Positions 1 through 5,985 are shown, counted from the stretch's first letter. The stretch: 7,538 nt of DNA from a virus (IMGVR_UViG_2529292734_000008:1-7538), one strand, 5' to 3'. A program made the numbers and translations. The notes: generated from the letters alone by a model not told the origin.

Positions 1-523
1 TTACCCGTTCTGTGCGGATCACTTTCAGGGCGCTGCTCACCAGTTCCAGTTGTTCTGCGCTGACTTCCCCCAGATAATCCAGCTCACCGCCACACTCCGG
101 GCAACAGCTTTCTTCAGGCTCCAGGCGGTATATCTCACGGGGGAGATGTGCCGGTAACGGACGACGATGGCGCGACTGTCGCAACTGGCGGGGAACCAGT
201 GGGTCATCCTCACGCCCACTGTAACGATCGCTTTCCTGCTCGCGTTGTTTCAGCAGGGCTTCAGCCTGTTCAACCTCACGACGCAGTTTTTCAGAACGGG
301 TTCCGAACAGCATCCGGCGCAGTTTTCTATCTGAGCCCGCAGATGCTCTATTTCTCGCTCATCTTCTTCGATCTTTTCTTCGGCACGTGCCAGTTGCAGA
401 GCGCAGGAAGGCCTCCGTCTCTTCAACCAGACTCAGTTGCTGGTCTTCCTGACGGAGGGCTTCAGCCTGCTCAGAGAGCAGCCTTTCCAGCTCAGCGATG
501 CGAATGAGGTATTTCTGACTCAT
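1..523 (-). CDS. tnpC: IS66-family transposase TnpC, N-terminal part (3' end outside window); reading frame appears interrupted
   Basis: ATG at 523-521 gives MSQKYLIRIAELERLLSEQAEALRQEDQQLSLVEETEAFLRSA. A coiled-coil segment LARAEEKIEEDEREIEHLRAQIE then lies in the +1 frame, and the long segment KLRRMLFGTRSEKLRREVEQAEALLKQ...CCPECGGELDYLGEVSAEQLELVSSALKVIRTERV returns to the ATG frame. Read straight from the ATG, the frame hits TGA (plus 359-361) after 54 codons. Confidence 0.75.
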
Positions 524-553
524 GGCCGTTTTTATAATCCGGCCCGGCGTTTT

Positions 554-904
554 TTACAACATTGTCAGTGCGTTAAGGCGGGATGTTTTTGGCTGACGCC
601 AGTCCAGCTTATCGAGGAGCATTGCCAGTTGCGAGCGGGTAATGGATATCTTACCGTCACGCACCGCAGGCCAGATAAACTGACCTTCCTCAAGGCGTTT
701 GGTGAACAGGCACAGACCATCAGCATCAGCCCACAGGATTTTAATCGTGTCTCCCCGTCGGCCACGGAAGATAAACAGGTGACCGGAGAAGGGGTTATCA
801 TCCAGCACATGCTGTATCTGCTCCCCCAGACCGTTGAAGGATTTACGCATATCAGTAACGCCGGCAACGAGCCAGATACGGGTACCTGATGGGAGTGAAA
901 TCAT
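554..904 (-). CDS. tnpB: IS66-family accessory protein TnpB (orf2)
   Basis: 116-aa ORF MISLPSGTRIWLVAGVTDMRKSFNGLGEQIQ...GHLFIFRGRRGDTIKILWADADGLCLFTKRLE, which matches the characteristic IS66 Orf2 sequence as I recall it. It sits between tnpA and tnpC. Confidence 0.85.
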   Translation of the reverse strand: MISLPSGTRIWLVAGVTDMRKSFNGLGEQIQHVLDDNPFSGHLFIFRGRRGDTIKILWADADGLCLFTKRLEEGQFIWPAVRDGKISITRSQLAMLLDKLDWRQPKTSRLNALTML

Positions 905-1338
905 CGTCCCTCCCGGTCAGCTCACGGATCAACACCGTGAGCAGCTCTGGTGAAGGATTTTCCAGCATCATTTTACCGTAATGGAATTCCACATGGCAGG
1001 AAGCTGCACAAGCAACTGATAATGCCTCCGGAGCAGGAGCATCTGTAGCACAGCGCGGGGGGTCGATAAGTTCCACTGGAACCAGAGTCGGAGAGGCCGG
1101 AAAAGATTGTGATACTGTAGGGCCTACAATAGTTGGAGGCATTCTACGAGAAAATACGTCCTTCTCTTTGCCAGAGGCGTAGCCATTTAAAAATCAGGTT
1201 GTTATCAACGCCATGTTCCCGGGCCAGTTGTGCAACATTGGCATTTGGTTTCGAAGCCAGTTCAACCATATGAAGTTTAAATTCATTAGAAAATATCCGG
1301 CGGGTTCCGGAGCGCCAGTCTGTAGGTTTATCCATCAA
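852..1338 (-). CDS. tnpA: IS66-family TnpA (orf1), present as two ORFs in different frames (1338-1144 and 1142-852); possibly frameshifted
   Basis: First ORF MMDKPTDWRSGTRRIFSNEFKLHMVELASKPNANVAQLAREHGVDNNLIFKWLRLWQREGRIFS (HTH-like) stops at TAG 1146-1144. Second ORF starts at ATG 1142 in another frame (MPPTIVGPTV...LLTVLIRELTGRDDDF...). The junction lies at the T4 run on the coding (minus) strand (A-run 1151-1154 on plus). Whether the native gene is continuous is from memory and unverified. Confidence 0.55.
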
Positions 1339-1449
1339 TAGAACTCCGTCTAATTTAGAAGGAGCTCTAATTTAGTCTGCAAGGAGCAGGTGTTACAGAC
1401 GGCATTGGCTTTACGCTTACGATTATTCATACTTCGTTTCTCCTCTTGA

Positions 1450-1839
1450 TCAGGCGGCTGCACCCGCCGTTTTCTCGTACTTACTGATAGTGATCTCGAC
1501 CTTCCCTTCCGGGATAACCGGTCCCCACTCCACCAGCATTCTTTTCACCTGACTGTCGTCTTCCCACACCCCCGCGTGGGTCAGGGCGTCAAACAGCGCC
1601 TTGTTATAGTTGTCCAGATCGCGGATCCTGTTATCCGGAGGAAACAACACGATCTCCACTGAAGCAGGTGCCGACGTTGGTTTCGGCAGACGACGTAACT
1701 GCTCAACTATTGCTGCGCACGCCGCGCTCTGGAATTTTCGCCCCGCCGCGCTTATCAGGCTCTTACCAGCAAACGCCCCTTTGTTGGGGTGTCGCCAGTA
1801 CGTGTTCACGCTGGGCGGAAAAGGCAGGATCAGCTTCAT
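1450..1839 (-). CDS. rusA: RusA-family Holliday junction resolvase (crossover junction endodeoxyribonuclease), lambdoid nin-region type
   Basis: 129-aa ORF with PPSVNTYWR...RIRDLDNYNKALFDALTHAGVWEDDSQV, resembling the RusA signature including the acidic RDLDN motif. Its ATG overlaps the stop of the upstream gene (ATGA). Confidence 0.85.
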   Translation of the reverse strand: MKLILPFPPSVNTYWRHPNKGAFAGKSLISAAGRKFQSAACAAIVEQLRRLPKPTSAPASVEIVLFPPDNRIRDLDNYNKALFDALTHAGVWEDDSQVKRMLVEWGPVIPEGKVEITISKYEKTAGAAA

Positions 1840-2162
1840 ACTTTCAGGCCCCTCTCATGTAACCAGTGGGTTGCACGCAGCCTTGCGTTTTCCTCACCGG
1901 CAAGCAGTGAGCGGATAATCCCGACCGCCTCGCTGTCGTCGTCCTTCACCGCGGTATGAAGCGTGATGCCCCGGGCCACGCCACGCTTTATCGTGATGAC
2001 GCCTTTTTTCTCCAGTGCGCGAAGATGCTCCACCGCTGCATTCACTGAACGGTATCCCAGCATGGTTGCCACCTCCTGATTGGTTGGCGGGAAGCCACGT
2101 TCTTTCTGATAAGAAATCAGCATATCCAGCACCTGCTGCTGGCATTGAGTTAACGTCGTCAT
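1836..2162 (-). CDS. LexA-like DNA-binding protein (LexA N-terminal winged-HTH domain only, no S24 peptidase domain)
   Basis: 108-aa ORF MTTLTQCQQQVLDMLISYQKERGFPPTNQEVATMLGYRSVNAAVEHLRALEKKGVITIKRGVARGITL aligns by eye with E. coli LexA residues 1-70 ([69 protein letters not shown]). The protein ends about 35 residues later with no Ser/Lys protease module. ATGA overlaps at both ends. Confidence 0.75.
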   Translation of the reverse strand: MTTLTQCQQQVLDMLISYQKERGFPPTNQEVATMLGYRSVNAAVEHLRALEKKGVITIKRGVARGITLHTAVKDDDSEAVGIIRSLLAGEENARLRATHWLHERGLKV

Positions 2163-2812
2163 GCCGCCATCTCCCTGACCAGTTTTTCTGCCTGCTGGCG
2201 AACCTGCGCCAGAAAGGCCTCACCACATGCCTCAAGTTCATCGCGCCCGATGTAGCTGATTGCCGGTCCCTTCCAGGTCTTGTCGAAAACAGCAATAGCA
2301 CCAGCGAAGAAAGCGCCTGTCGGCACCTGCTTCTCATCCTTCGGGATAAACCAGGCAGGCAGTTCAAAACCAATACGCCCGCGAATAAAAGCAATATGAT
2401 CTGCATCTTCCGGCCACCACACTTCGCTGGTGGCAGCTTTGATCAGGAAAACATAGCGCCCGCCTTTATCACGCATGGCACTGGCATGCTTCATGATGTA
2501 ACGCATGCCGGTGATGTATTGCCCCTCATGCTGGCTGGCGCGGCTGTATGGGGGATTACCAAAGGCAGCACCTTTAAGCTCCGCAAGGCGTTCTGACCAG
2601 TCATGCGCCAACGCGTTGTCTTCCGCCGTGTAATACGCAGCACATTTGGCGTTATCACCGTCAGTAAACAGATCCAGAACAAACGGGCCAAACAGAGTGT
2701 TAATTCCCCAGAAAATGTTGTCCGGCGTGCGCCACTGATCGCCCACTTCCTTCAGTTCATGGGCTGGTTTGTTCCGCAGTTCCGCCAGCGCCTGGCAATA
2801 TTTATTACTCAT
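2159..2812 (-). CDS. Phage N6-adenine DNA methyltransferase (Dam-like orphan MTase)
   Basis: ORF contains the motif-IV sequence FGNPPYS (NPPY) and an overall phage N-6-adenine MTase-like sequence. The likely start is ATG 2812-2810, overlapping the upstream stop as TAATG, with GGGGG just upstream. The ORF track extends to a GTG at 2845. Confidence 0.8.
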   Translation of the reverse strand: MSNKYCQALAELRNKPAHELKEVGDQWRTPDNIFWGINTLFGPFVLDLFTDGDNAKCAAYYTAEDNALAHDWSERLAELKGAAFGNPPYSRASQHEGQYITGMRYIMKHASAMRDKGGRYVFLIKAATSEVWWPEDADHIAFIRGRIGFELPAWFIPKDEKQVPTGAFFAGAIAVFDKTWKGPAISYIGRDELEACGEAFLAQVRQQAEKLVREMAA

Positions 2813-3306
2813 TAAGCCCCCACGTAATTCCCTGAGAGATACCACTCTTCACCTGATGCAGCCCGCTTACTGCTTTTCCGTAAACACAGTTCACGACGTG
2901 CCAGAAAATTGTTTCGTTCTGGCTGGGAGTGGCTTTCACGGAATGCCGCCATCCACACCGTTGCAGCACGACGGTATAAGCCCCTGGACTCCAGTTCTTC
3001 CGCCTGGCGGGTCAGGCACAAAATCACCCGCGGGTCGTTAGTGCCGACATAGAAATTGCGCACAGGTCTGGTTTCACGAACTGGTTGTGGTTCCGGATCC
3101 TGCGCTCTCTCAGTCAGGCGCGGGAAATGTCTGTGTGTATCTCCTTCACAACGGTGAGCCACACGCCCACTCTGACGTAACTTGCTTGCTGACTGCAGAA
3201 CGCGCTGCCGTGAGTAACCTGCAAAAGCATCCGCAATGTCTCCGGAAGTACAGCCCGGATGGGCTTCAATGAATTTCTGAACGTCATTCAAAAGACTCAT
3301 GCTCAC
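2812..3306 (-). CDS. Phage regulatory protein, winged-helix-like N-terminus with PerC-like C-terminal region (putative)
   Basis: 164-aa ORF translationally coupled at both ends (ATGA with the replication gene stop; TAATG with the MTase start). The C-terminal segment LESRGLYRRAATVWMAAF resembles the conserved core I recall for PerC/Pch-family activators; this assignment is from memory and is tentative. Confidence 0.55.
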   Translation of the reverse strand: MSMSLLNDVQKFIEAHPGCTSGDIADAFAGYSRQRVLQSASKLRQSGRVAHRCEGDTHRHFPRLTERAQDPEPQPVRETRPVRNFYVGTNDPRVILCLTRQAEELESRGLYRRAATVWMAAFRESHSQPERNNFLARRELCLRKSSKRAASGEEWYLSGNYVGA

Positions 3307-4244
3307 CCCCTGAATCCTGCCGGGATCTGGCTGTAGTCCACATTGTCGTAACTGGCTTTGAAGTACGGGTCTTCGCGTTTTTCTGTGTACGTGCTGACGG
3401 ACGGCGATAAGCGCAGGGAAAGCTCATCCCATTTTTCCCGCAGCTTCGACGGGCTGAGCACGTTACGGCACCAGAACGGATCGCGGCTGACGCGGCTGTA
3501 CATCTCGCAGATTTGTTTGTGAGTACGACCATCCTGCACACACATCAGGCGAATTTCGTTTGCCCAGGCTGTCCAGTTCGGTTCTTTGGGACGAACCACC
3601 TCGCCGTCACATTCGGCAGCCTGCTCGTACAGGGCGATGATTTTTTTCCAGAGCCACTGTGCGCAGGTCAAATCATCCTGCGTCCCCCACTGGCGCTTTT
3701 TAGGGCTGAATACAACCGCATCAGGATGGCGAGTTAAAAAATCCTGTTCAGCCGTCTGCGTGTCCGGTTGCGAAGCGTCCGGACGAGAAGGTTTTTTATC
3801 TGACGGATCATGTTTTGATTTTACTGACGGATCCCCGCCAGATTCTGACGGGTGAAAACCCGCTTTTTTGCCAGATTTCGACGCATCAAATTTTGACGGG
3901 TCAGATTTTGATGCGTCAGATTTTGACGGGTCAGAATCTGACAGTTGAGAAAATGCCGCTGCCTGAAGCTTCGCAACGTTAAGCTGATAAACATTCGACG
4001 CATTGCGGTTACCCTGGCGACGCGCCTTACGCGTTAACCAGCCTTCTGCTTCCAGCCGTGCGATAGCCGTTCTGACGGTACTCATCCCCGCGCCAATCTG
4101 ACGGGCAATGGTTTCAATTGATGGCCAGCACACACCTTCGTCATTACTGAAATCAGCCAGGCGGGCCATAATTGCCACGCTGGATAACTTCATGCCTGAT
4201 GCAGCGCAACCATCCCATACATAGCCGGTTAATTTAGTGCTCAT
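3303..4244 (-). CDS. Phage replication initiation protein (lambda O-like function): N-terminal HTH DNA-binding domain, low-complexity linker, C-terminal domain
   Basis: 313-aa ORF. The N-terminus ([70 protein letters not shown]) is typical of phage replication-initiator HTH domains. The central linker SDSDPSKSDASKSDPSKFDASKS is encoded by tandem DNA repeats. SD GAGGT lies 5 nt upstream of the ATG. Confidence 0.8.
   Translation of the reverse strand: MSTKLTGYVWDGCAASGMKLSSVAIMARLADFSNDEGVCWPSIETIARQIGAGMSTVRTAIARLEAEGWLTRKARRQGNRNASNVYQLNVAKLQAAAFSQLSDSDPSKSDASKSDPSKFDASKSGKKAGFHPSESGGDPSVKSKHDPSDKKPSRPDASQPDTQTAEQDFLTRHPDAVVFSPKKRQWGTQDDLTCAQWLWKKIIALYEQAAECDGEVVRPKEPNWTAWANEIRLMCVQDGRTHKQICEMYSRVSRDPFWCRNVLSPSKLREKWDELSLRLSPSVSTYTEKREDPYFKASYDNVDYSQIPAGFRG
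3798..3950. repeat. Putative replication origin: about 8 iterons with 10-bp core TGAYGSRTCA inside the replication-initiator gene
   Basis: Core copies at about 3801, 3825, 3846, 3880, 3895, 3910, 3925 and 3940, the last four at exact 15-bp spacing (GATTT-TGACGGGTCA). Flanking T-rich tracts at 3791-3797 and 3864-3869. The position matches the lambda arrangement where ori lies within the O gene linker. Confidence 0.6.
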
Positions 4245-4592
4245 GACCGACCTCTATTTCCCTGAATTTACGACGAAACTGTTCGAGCGGACTGAAGCAT
4301 TCATGCTCATAACCTTCGCGGAGGTAGATAACCCGTTGTGTTTCCGGCTCCCAACGAATGACTCTGACGGGCACTCCGTAGTGATCTTTGAACCAGCGGT
4401 TAACTTGTCGCAAAGGACTGTCTCCTTCTGCCGGTTGAAATCACCCACAGCCCACTCTGCAAAGCTGTGGGTTACAATTTCCCTGTCACCTGGTACATTC
4501 ACTGCATAGCAATATTCCACCTTCGCTTTTCCACCCGGAACAGGAAGCGCAATCAGTTGCGAGCGACGGTAGTGTGTTGTTAAACTGTTCAT
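4234..4592 (-). CDS. Hypothetical phage protein, apparently frameshifted (N-terminal part in one frame, protein-like C-terminal part in another)
   Basis: The track ORF 4592-4254 starts [51 protein letters not shown] and then degenerates into a Ser/Thr-rich tail. From 4440 down to TAA 4236-4234 a second frame encodes [68 protein letters not shown]. The start overlaps the upstream gene stop as ATGA. Confidence 0.5.
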
Positions 4593-4957
4593 GCGTTAGT
4601 TTCTCCACAGTCACGACACGCCACGGCGCCCGGAGCTGCACACTCGCGGGCGTCATTACTTTCTGAAATGCAAAAAATTTTGTAGACCAGTGCTGCATGC
4701 TCCTGCAGCTTCGAAATTGAGAGGTAGAGCTCGTCATTAATTGCTGTCTTCTCATGCGGTTCCACTACACCGTCTTCGATTGCTGAACGAATCTGTTTTG
4801 AATAACTGCCGATCTGTTCAATGACTTCCAGCAGACGCTGGTTAATATCGGCGTTGTCCACATCCTCGACGTCAGGAAGAGACACAAAGACGCCATTTGC
4901 AGACTGCGCCACAGCATCAGCAATGAAGTGAGTTCCACCAGCACGTTGCAAAATCAT
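4589..4957 (-). CDS. Hypothetical phage early protein (122 aa, predicted helical)
   Basis: ORF with ATG at 4957. Its stop overlaps the downstream gene start (ATGA at 4592-4589). It lies between the cII-like and replication genes in the same operon. No family recognised. Confidence 0.55.
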
Positions 4958-4978
4958 TGCCCATCCCAGCGGGAAAAT

Positions 4979-5185
4979 CTAATCGCCATCGGCACGAAGG
5001 CGGTTAAATAATGCGTTCTCTGTTACATCCAGCCAGTCAGCAGCTTCAGCGTAACCCCCCGGCAACGCTGCGATAGTTTTTCTGACAGCTTTCACGTACC
5101 ACTCAGGCTGTTTGTCTACTTTCCAGTGATGCTTACCCACGGTTAGCCTCATCGTTCTGTGGTTTCTGTTAATCGATTTATCCAT
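4979..5185 (-). CDS. CII-like / YdaT-like HTH regulatory protein (putative), ending at an amber codon
   Basis: HTH-like segment GYAEAADWLDVTENALFNRLR at the C-terminus, in the position of lambda cII (immediately downstream of cro). The start is uncertain: ATG 5185 overlaps the cro stop, with alternatives at 5197 and 5152; none has a strong SD. The ORF ends at TAG 4981-4979. Confidence 0.45.
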   Translation of the reverse strand: MDKSINRNHRTMRLTVGKHHWKVDKQPEWYVKAVRKTIAALPGGYAEAADWLDVTENALFNRLRADGD

Positions 5186-5378
5186 TAGATTTTTCATAAA
5201 GCTCAGGTTTAAATGGCAACCGTCCGCAAGTTCTATATGCAGCTTCTGCTGCACGTCCTTTTGGAATTAACTGGCCCGGACGGTTTCGCCACTGATAAAC
5301 GGCTTCAGTTGTTATGCCGAAAAAAGCAGCAACTTTCTCAATACTGCCGAAGTAGCTTTCGATATCGTCAGTTGTCAT
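5178..5378 (-). CDS. Cro-like transcriptional regulator (small HTH protein)
   Basis: 66-aa ORF MTTDDIESYFGSIEKVAAFFGITTEAVYQWRNRPGQLIPKGRAAEAAYRTCGRLPF with an HTH motif (VAAFFGITTEAVYQWR). SD GGAGGG lies just upstream of ATG 5378. It is transcribed divergently from the repressor gene. Confidence 0.7.
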   Translation of the reverse strand: MTTDDIESYFGSIEKVAAFFGITTEAVYQWRNRPGQLIPKGRAAEAAYRTCGRLPFKPELYEKSNG

Positions 5379-5388
5379 ACGCCCTCCA

Positions 5389-5455
5389 AACTAAGTTTTA
5401 TTAGATGCTAATTACAAATCTATCTTTGGTCAATAAAAACTAAGATTACTTAGTA
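5389..5455. promoter_or_regulatory. Divergent immunity control region (OR-like): two 14-bp inverted-repeat operator candidates and a PR-like promoter for cro
   Basis: CTAAGTTTTATTAG (5391-5404) and CTAAGATTACTTAG (5440-5453; perfect 5-bp arms CTAAG/CTTAG). On the minus strand, -35 TTGACC (5433-5428), a 17-bp spacer and -10 TAGCAT (5410-5405) precede the cro ATG. The first operator overlaps the -10/+1 region. Confidence 0.55.
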
Positions 5456-5475
5456 ATTAAAGAAATGGTGCTCCT

Positions 5476-5985
5476 ATGGAAACGGTTGGTCAGCGTATAA
5501 AAGCTCTGAGAAGAGTTACCAGAACGTCCCAGAAAGAATTGGGTAAATTTTGTGGAGTAAGCGACGTTGCTGTGGGGTACTGGGAGAAAGACATCAATAC
5601 CCCTGGTGGGGAGGCACTTTCGAAATTAGCGAAGTTCTTCAATACGTCAATAGATTACATTCTTTATGGTGCTGAGTTTGAAGGCAAACTCGTCACAAAC
5701 ATGCGCAGAGTTCCTGTAATATCGTGGGTTCAGGCTGGGCAGTTTACTGAGTGCAGGGCAGCAGAAGTGTTTAGTGAAGTGGACAAGTGGGTAGATACAT
5801 CATTAAAGATTGGTGATAACTCATTTGCATTAGAGGTTAAAGGTGACTCCATGACTAACCCTAATGGCCTCCCAACAATACCAGAAGGCGCAACAGTGAT
5901 TGTAGATCCAGATGCAGAACCTCGTCATGGAAAAATAGTCATCGCTCGACTTGATGGAACAAACGAAGCTACAGTAAAAAATTAG
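5476..5985 (+). CDS. CI-type prophage repressor (XRE HTH + LexA-like S24 peptidase domain), truncated by a frameshift; remaining C-terminal codons continue in another frame to 6101
   Basis: N-terminal HTH (QKELGKFCGVSDVAVGYWEKD) and S24 catalytic Ser motif GDSM. The ORF ends ...ARLDGTNEATVKN*. The adjacent frame encodes KKLVIDGPQKFLVPLNPRYPNIPINGNCLIIGVVKGVQYEL* (to TAA 6099-6101), which matches the lambda CI C-terminus pattern [35 protein letters not shown]. The break is in the A6 run 5976-5981. Confidence 0.85.
   Translation: METVGQRIKALRRVTRTSQKELGKFCGVSDVAVGYWEKDINTPGGEALSKLAKFFNTSIDYILYGAEFEGKLVTNMRRVPVISWVQAGQFTECRAAEVFSEVDKWVDTSLKIGDNSFALEVKGDSMTNPNGLPTIPEGATVIVDPDAEPRHGKIVIARLDGTNEATVKN

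Follow-up and report, generated by a model that had tools for sequence, protein, structure and literature searches.

Classical members of the PerC family are small single-domain proteins of about 60–105 amino acids, among them PerC from EPEC pEAF and PchA/B/C from the EHEC prophages Sp4, Sp11 and Sp14, which switch on the virulence loci LEE1/ler. The ANR family includes Aar of EAEC, Rnr and Cnr. Activation by Pch depends fully on repression by H-NS/StpA/Hha/YdgT, and Pch lowers H-NS occupancy at LEE1; direct interaction between Pch and H-NS was not detectable (Fukui et al., PMC4764244). The ANR protein Aar binds both H-NS and AraC-family regulators directly (PMC5570504; PMC4983702). One PICI PerC-like protein represses LEE1, and other PICI-encoded homologs were reported inactive there (PMC11773190). 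Effects at LEE1 range from activation through none at all to repression, and belonging to the PerC family does not predict LEE activation. Viewed across these precedents, the shared core would be a compact helical unit able to disturb complexes of nucleoid proteins or of regulators, with an outcome that varies by member.

Escherichia coli K-12 encodes one such protein, YfdN. Called 'the K12 unique PerC homologue', its gene was deleted as a precaution from a ler-lacZ host by Uhlich and colleagues before their Pch assays (PMC5931665), a step implying that the authors thought cross-activation possible. The papers found to mention yfdN report no experiment on YfdN, and in the others among them the gene appears only as rows in expression or screening tables. 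Here we describe a near-identical yfdN in a 7,538-nucleotide stretch of viral DNA (IMGVR_UViG_2529292734_000008:1-7538; the window), in which a sequence-only reading had pointed to a PerC-like regulatory motif in a prophage early gene and had tentatively suggested a possible lysogenic-conversion regulator. Our analysis indicates that YfdN belongs to the PerC family by its core only, and that this core sits within a two-domain protein of the early operon.

yfdN is a widespread prophage gene

The open reading frame at 2812..3306 (minus strand, stop codon included) was identified as yfdN from the ORF call, from its RefSeq annotation, carried by many genomes, as 'yfdN: PerC family transcriptional regulator', from a match to PHROG 1324 ('transcriptional activator') across the full length at 1e-77, and from its likeness to K-12 YfdN (b2357) of the cryptic prophage CPS-53/KpLE1. 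The strand had not been given in the sequence-only reading. The window and K-12 proteins are identical at 163 of 164 positions, the sole substitution being R141L (164-aa numbering). The neighbours are also the same in K-12, with the O-like yfdO upstream and the methyltransferase gene yfdM downstream, but both flanking genes are truncated there and full length in the window. Translation from GTG 3306 would yield 164 amino acids and from ATG 3300 162; the latter is more likely to be the true start, given its better Shine–Dalgarno spacing and the MSL... N-terminus common to most homologs. We hold the identity of the gene, and the domain anatomy described below, with high confidence.

The gene is very common in prophages of E. 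coli, Shigella and Salmonella, Stx2a and Stx2c phages included. Its DNA is 96–99.8% identical to the counterpart gene in 49 phage records, among them SfII, mEp460, Ayreon, Kati and many Stx2a and Stx2c phages, and it is frequent in commensal and K-12 strains that lack the LEE. The PerC-family label of the gene is already known from RefSeq, Pfam, PHROGs and the literature; since RefSeq already calls YfdN a 'PerC family transcriptional regulator', the assignment itself is not new.

YfdN shares a core with PerC and Pch

Searching YfdN against Pfam-A returned a single match, PerC (PF06069), with E=5.8e-9; its score of 36.5 bits clears the gathering cut-off, 22.6 bits. The PerC-like motif that had been recognized in this open reading frame is therefore real and well beyond chance. 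The match spans residues 100–151 (window 2854–3009) and covers model positions 5–56 of 90 only; in the Pfam alignment, YfdN has no counterpart of model positions 57–90, the C-terminal half of PerC. The motif originally quoted, LESRGLYRRAATVWMAAF (residues 105–122; 2941..2994, minus strand), runs from the last part of helix 1 across the turn and through helix 2 in the PerC-like core. PF06069 also matched 30 of 31 diverse two-domain relatives, and L103, R111 and A112 are invariant in the 31 relatives, which are 23–47% identical to YfdN.

For comparison with Pch, we took pchA (ECs_1091) from the O157:H7 Sakai genome and translated it. Sakai PchA was used in place of EPEC PerC; a plasmid tblastn with a short PerC-like query gave no recognisable pEAF perC among the matches listed. 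BLASTP aligned YfdN residues 100–143 (162-aa numbering) with PchA residues 7–50 at 18 of 44 identities (41%; E=2e-7), and the PchA counterpart of LESRGLYRRAATVWMAAF in this alignment is LEKKGLYRRAAERWAKVM. The profile search and the Pch alignment that the sequence-only reading had put forward as checks thus both bear out the PerC-like core. Common to YfdN and PerC/Pch is the pattern A-E-x-L-E-x-x-G-L-Y-R-R-A-A-x-x-W ... R-x-x-C-L-R-K.

Outside this core the proteins differ. YfdN, at 162–164 amino acids, carries an added winged helix and linker that set it apart from the single-domain family. Short classical PerC-like proteins run on into a '...MGI...FR' segment that YfdN lacks, and in YfdN a WYLSGNYVG tail stands in place of the C-terminal half of classical PerC/Pch. 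What places YfdN in the PerC family is therefore its core alone, and it does not count as a classical activator of the PerC/Pch kind: the family name here denotes a core of about 50 residues inside a different, two-domain early-operon protein.

Predicted architecture of YfdN

We ran AlphaFold2 twice, first on 16 close homologs and then on the 31 relatives at 23–47% identity, and both runs agree on the architecture. YfdN is predicted to have an N-terminal winged helix joined through a flexible linker to a basic PerC/ANR-like domain of three helices, behind which comes a short conserved tail. The winged-helix (wHTH) domain, residues 1–60 in 162-aa numbering (3121..3300, minus strand), is modelled as three helices followed by a β-hairpin, with a pLDDT of 94–98 in the second run. 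Residues 61–87 (3040..3120, minus strand) form a linker predicted at low confidence (pLDDT 45–59), which differs in length and sequence among relatives. The PerC/ANR-like domain, residues 88–148 (2857..3039, minus strand), is supported by both the Pfam match and the models, which place its helices at 90–105, 109–122 and 126–148 with pLDDT above 90 (94–98 in the second run, as for the winged helix); the domain is strongly basic (pI 10.7). The pTM of 0.48 in the second run suggests that the two domains are independent, with no fixed mutual arrangement.

The C-terminal tail, ending ...EEWYLSGNYVGA (residues 149–162; 2815..2856, minus strand), is modelled at low confidence (pLDDT 42–57). Although predicted to be disordered, it is invariant among close relatives at W153, L155, G157, Y159, V160 and G161, and a pattern LAGxYxG can still be recognized in the tails of distant relatives and of some short PerC-like proteins.

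Comparisons with known structures recovered the winged helix. A profile built from the 31 relatives matched BlaI/MecI and MarR winged-helix domains among PDB sequences at E of about 2e-4, and scattered MarR, Penicillinase_R and PaaX Pfam matches occur among the relatives. With Foldseek, SmtB, MarR and BlaI superpose at an rmsd of 2–3 Å over about 60 residues, but with E>0.01; the Foldseek matches in the PDB were winged helices only, none of them at E<=0.001. Neither Foldseek nor the sequence-profile search found a PDB counterpart of the PerC/ANR-like domain. Its closest structural neighbour is a BFVD model annotated 'ANR family transcriptional regulator', from an Aeromonas phage, with an rmsd of 0.5 Å over 56 residues.

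Proteins of this kind form a small set. When 1.84 billion cluster representatives were searched exhaustively with the profile, only 153 clusters came up at E<=0.001, of which about 30 are two-domain proteins of 133–165 amino acids and the remainder fragments and short PerC-like proteins; every named member is a 'PerC family transcriptional regulator'. YfdN fits the two-domain type of PHROG 1324, in which a winged helix is connected by a linker to a PerC core and an LAGxYxG tail, and whose gene has its slot between replication and methyltransferase genes.

yfdN is embedded in the early operon

The surroundings of yfdN in the window agree with its description as a prophage early gene in the replication operon. 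Reading along the minus strand, a pR-like promoter (5405..5433; sigma-70 consensus scan) lies upstream of a cro-like gene (5178–5378), between divergent cI-like and cro-like genes and at a position fitting pR. There follow a cII/YmfL-like gene (4589–5140), interrupted in this copy, a DUF4222 gene (4234–4413) and an O-like replication initiator gene (3303..4244), whose product has an HTH_36 N-terminal domain (4e-11) and matches PHROG 391 'replication initiation O-like' at 8e-136; four 15-bp iterons lie as tandem repeats inside this gene (3872–3935). yfdN comes next and is followed by dam (2159..2812), encoding a phage N6-adenine DNA methyltransferase (Pfam Dam, 1e-45; TIGR01712, 255 bits), then by a gene for a protein with a LexA DNA-binding domain only (1836–2162) and by rusA (1450–1839), all on the minus strand.

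On both sides, yfdN overlaps its neighbours. The stop codon of the O-like gene and the annotated yfdN start share GTGA (3303..3306, minus strand), a 4-nt stop/start geometry that recurs in two distant loci (L006 and L009), and the yfdN stop and dam start share TAATG (2810..2814, minus strand); in the RefSeq coordinates of strain D6, dam ends where yfdN begins. A crude consensus scan of the minus strand from 1400 to 5600, weak by itself, found no sigma-70-like site other than the pR-like one. From the overlaps and the single pR-like promoter, yfdN should be repressed in the lysogen and expressed on induction; it is probably co-expressed with the replication genes from pR.

The near-identical prophage of strain D6 also reveals damage in the window. 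The cII/ymfL-like gene contains a TAG nonsense codon (4979–4981), and the repressor gene has lost one base in an A-run near 5970–5976, so that its product is 169 rather than 208 amino acids long, and its S24 domain is cut short. Positions 1–1420 are taken up by a partial IS66-family element, where D6 has a KilA-N gene. The nonsense codon, the frameshift and the insertion element together indicate that this prophage copy is decaying. Expression in decayed prophages such as K-12 CPS-53, or in this window, where the repressor gene is damaged, may depart from the pattern expected of pR.

Gene order is kept in distant relatives

We surveyed the gene context of eight relatives at 23–41% identity. 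Seven of them lie directly after a replication gene, encoding an initiator of the HTH_36 or Phg_2220_C type or, once, a lambda-P-like protein; the eighth sits after recT. For one of the seven, L004, the upstream gene is off the contig. Directly downstream, all seven have a DNA methyltransferase gene, drawn from three Pfam families: Dam (PF05869), MT-A70 (PF05063) and a 1096-aa fusion with D12 (PF02086). LexA-DBD and RusA genes come next in the four loci with a long enough contig (L003, L004, L006 and L009/L010), and adjacent genes usually overlap by 1–4 nt where coordinates are available. The packing of the gene between a replication gene and a methyltransferase is thus kept in relatives down to about 25% identity.

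A scan of viral contigs recovered only 98–99% identical copies of YfdN, and so informs mosaicism and not diversity; the corresponding scan of genome contigs gave 5 loci only. An O-like gene lies upstream in 79 of 80 such viral contigs. These O-like genes fall into three types, about 100%, 70–80% and 30% identical to that of the window. The same Dam lies downstream in 72 of the 80, and the LexA-DBD gene follows yfdN directly in 7. The occurrence of near-identical YfdN with three O-like types indicates that it travels with a nin-type module and not with a particular initiator. In this lambdoid prophage, yfdN is the first gene of the nin-type region, immediately behind the replication genes.

Weighing possible functions of YfdN

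The proposal that a prophage-expressed YfdN acts in lysogenic conversion, switching on host LEE1/ler in the manner of PerC and PchABC, draws on the genuine PerC-family core, on the precautionary deletion of K-12 yfdN before the ler-lacZ tests, and on the frameshifted repressor gene of the window, from which early genes could leak. It is not supported by the comparison of loci. In prophage Sp4, pchA lies in the late region after a Q-like gene and tRNAs, on the opposite strand and adjoining IS629, which is the position of a late-region moron, whereas yfdN lies inside the early pR operon, is translationally coupled and lacks a separate promoter-like site. YfdN also lacks the C-terminal half of PerC/Pch, is common in strains that have no LEE to activate, and has PerC-like counterparts that are inactive or repressive at LEE1. 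With a partial match and a family name that does not predict LEE activation, we consider a conversion role highly improbable, and the label 'PerC family' on YfdN should not be taken to mean 'virulence activator'. A related possibility is that the three-helix domain works as an ANR-type anti-activator, inactivating an AraC/XylS-family or other host or phage regulator and not acting on DNA-bound H-NS, with the winged helix supplying a second contact. The ANR-annotated top structural neighbour points this way, as does the repression of LEE1 by a PICI PerC-like protein, and YfdN shares with the ANR family a domain of three helices, some 55 residues long. Read by eye against the published ANR signature (PMC4983702), YfdN has A10, E14, A22, W26, A29, R47 and C51 if a 2-residue indel is allowed (7 of 8 positions) but lacks the conserved W43, and its match to the NCBIfam ANR model NF033650 (24.7 bits, E=1.5e-5) falls below the cut-off of 32. 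With its extra domain, YfdN moreover reaches about 18 kDa; ANRs stay below 10 kDa and are encoded alongside an AraC/XylS-family activator, and no AraC-family gene occurs in the window or the related loci. We regard anti-activation of this type as unlikely.

Two further readings start from the position of the gene. A Ren-like or replication-accessory YfdN would guard the phage from exclusion by a resident prophage or assist the initiator at the origin. The slot directly after the last replication gene and the overlapping codons match lambda P–ren, and the homolog P0130 follows a lambda-P-like gene directly. Lambda Ren has a small N-terminal winged helix like that of YfdN; the two N-domains align in register over 46 columns (HHalign E=5e-4, probability 30%, which is not significant), both proteins match PHROG 1687, and 3 of the 31 relatives match PHROG 142 'Ren-like' with a best E of 8e-4. 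YfdN itself reaches E=0.0055 against PHROG 142 with no stretch passing on its own, the likeness goes no further than a generic winged helix, Ren lacks a PerC core, and the association of the same YfdN with three O-like types only about 30–80% identical to each other argues against a specific partnership with the initiator. This role too has little chance of being right. Alternatively, YfdN could time or target phage DNA methylation as a controller of the methyltransferase, like the C-proteins of restriction-modification systems. A methyltransferase from one of three families as next gene in seven of eight distant contexts, and the overlap of the yfdN stop with the dam start, would suit such a controller. 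The 7 of 80 close loci in which the LexA-DBD gene replaces Dam directly after yfdN would not, nor would the intact yfdN of K-12 beside a truncated methyltransferase gene; the two genes may be neighbours only through the gene order of the nin region, and a PerC/ANR domain acting on a methyltransferase has no known mechanistic precedent. We think control of methylation most doubtful.

Two other candidates were rejected. Ren as a truncated YfdN was suggested by tails that look alike by eye (ECRxS...VLAVYG and RCLRKS...YLSGNYVG), but the C-terminal parts do not align (HHalign E=0.2). YfdN as a substitute for a helicase loader such as lambda P was set aside given the 41%-identical homolog directly after a lambda-P-like gene and the three divergent O-like types; in the window, no P/DnaC/DnaB gene follows the O-like gene.

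The explanation that we prefer is a two-domain, early-operon YfdN, driven from pR, in which a PerC/ANR module is placed on DNA; taken as a whole, it seems to us evenly poised between right and wrong. Transcription of yfdN from pR would have the protein made upon induction or infection but not while the lysogen is repressed, and the winged helix would place it on DNA. The PerC/ANR-like helices might then act as Pch does, lowering H-NS/StpA occupancy, or as Aar does, binding H-NS and AraC-type regulators. The expected effect would be a loosening of silencing by nucleoid proteins, or the sequestration of a regulator, in the course of lytic growth. As the likeliest function we tentatively put forward, by analogy with Pch and Aar, a DNA-binding modulator of the induction phase which would counter H-NS-type silencing or sequester a partner; our confidence in this mechanism is well below even.

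Discussion

As a finding about the gene itself, this analysis adds little to a label already in place; what it yields is a caution about that label and a lead. The lead is that induction of prophages carrying so common a gene may deliver an H-NS antagonist, which would bear on the expression of virulence islands. A more speculative idea, on balance improbable, is that YfdN-type proteins are a distinct phage early class in which a sequence-reading winged helix delivers a PerC/ANR module to DNA at lytic onset, disrupting H-NS or sequestering a partner. If it were true, they would work against the xenogeneic silencing of AT-rich DNA belonging to the phage itself, or against a host exclusion system in the manner of lambda Ren, and the conserved tail modelled at low confidence would be a docking motif for a partner. 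The effect could then spill over onto H-NS-silenced host islands when the prophage is induced.

Conserved neighbours and tail of yfdN

The gene directly 3′ of the yfdN-like gene encodes a DNA methyltransferase in seven of the eight contexts examined around distant YfdN relatives. These enzymes fall into three distinct Pfam families (Dam, MT-A70 and D12), and the corresponding genes lie at 934-4224 in locus L003, 485-1144 in L004, 761-1342 in L005, 5435-6121 in L006, 920-1450 in L007, 5462-6013 in L009 and 648-1172 in L011. The L003 gene is a 1,096-aa open reading frame (ORF) with a D12 domain, and our reading of its sequence suggests additional C5-methyltransferase-like and PAPS-reductase-like parts. 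Among the 80 viral contigs with nearly identical YfdN, seven lack the methyltransferase gene. In distant loci, the conservation of yfdN, rusA and the methyltransferase gene extends to a gene for a LexA DNA-binding-domain protein. In the window this 108-aa product (1836-2162, minus strand; PF01726, 69 bits) comprises the DNA-binding domain alone, without the S24 cleavage domain, and it could operate as an uncleavable LexA mimic that targets SOS boxes during lytic growth.

The C-terminal tail of YfdN, EEWYLSGNYVGA (2815-2856, minus strand), is near-invariant despite a low-confidence structure prediction (pLDDT 42-57). Distant two-domain relatives carry it in the form LAGxYxG, as do some short PerC-like proteins (P0189, P0200, P0204 and P0210), and the tail resembles a short linear docking motif.

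In the cryptic prophage CPS-53 of E. coli K-12 (locus L099, 5113-6247), yfdN is intact between two truncated remnants: yfdO, which retains 122 aa of the O-like initiator gene, and yfdM, which retains 91 aa of dam. CPS-53 also lacks cro, cII and the repressor region. The survival of yfdN in K-12 could reflect either chance or selective retention.

Candidate origin repeats and overlapping reading frames

The O-like initiator gene contains four 15-bp tandem repeats at 3872-3935 (consensus CAGATTTTGACGGGT), whose translation accounts for the repetitive stretch PSKSDASKSD. By analogy with the lambda origin, which lies within O, these repeats are probably origin iterons.

At 4234-4592 on the minus strand, two ORFs overlap in different frames and each has a strong family match: a 112-aa ORF at 4254-4592 (PHROG 1170, 8e-70) and a 59-aa DUF4222 ORF at 4234-4413 (Pfam, 9e-19). 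RefSeq annotates DUF4222 only, which is also retained in distant loci.

Departures from the intact prophage

The left end of the window (1-1420) is occupied by a partial IS66-family element that includes IS66 Orf2/TnpB (554-904, minus strand) and an HTH_Tnp_1 orfA (1144-1338, minus strand). Homology to intact prophages ends at 1421; the nearly identical prophage of strain D6 carries a KilA-N gene after rusA, whereas the window has the IS66-family element in its place. None of the complete E. coli genomes in the collection spans the full window.

Two further differences from D6 affect regulatory genes. Within the ymfL/cII-like gene (CII-like, Phage_CP76/YmfL; 4589-5140, minus strand), an in-frame TAG at 4979-4981 replaces the CAG of D6 and breaks the gene into two ORFs, 4979-5254 and 4589-4957. 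The cI-like repressor gene (5476-5985, plus strand) has lost one base from a run of A near 5970-5976 (A6 in the window, A7 in D6), and its product is 169 aa rather than 208 aa, the Peptidase_S24 domain being truncated. The deletion could be genuine and inactivate the gene, or it could be a sequencing error in the homopolymer. A genuine deletion might leave the early operon, yfdN included, derepressed.
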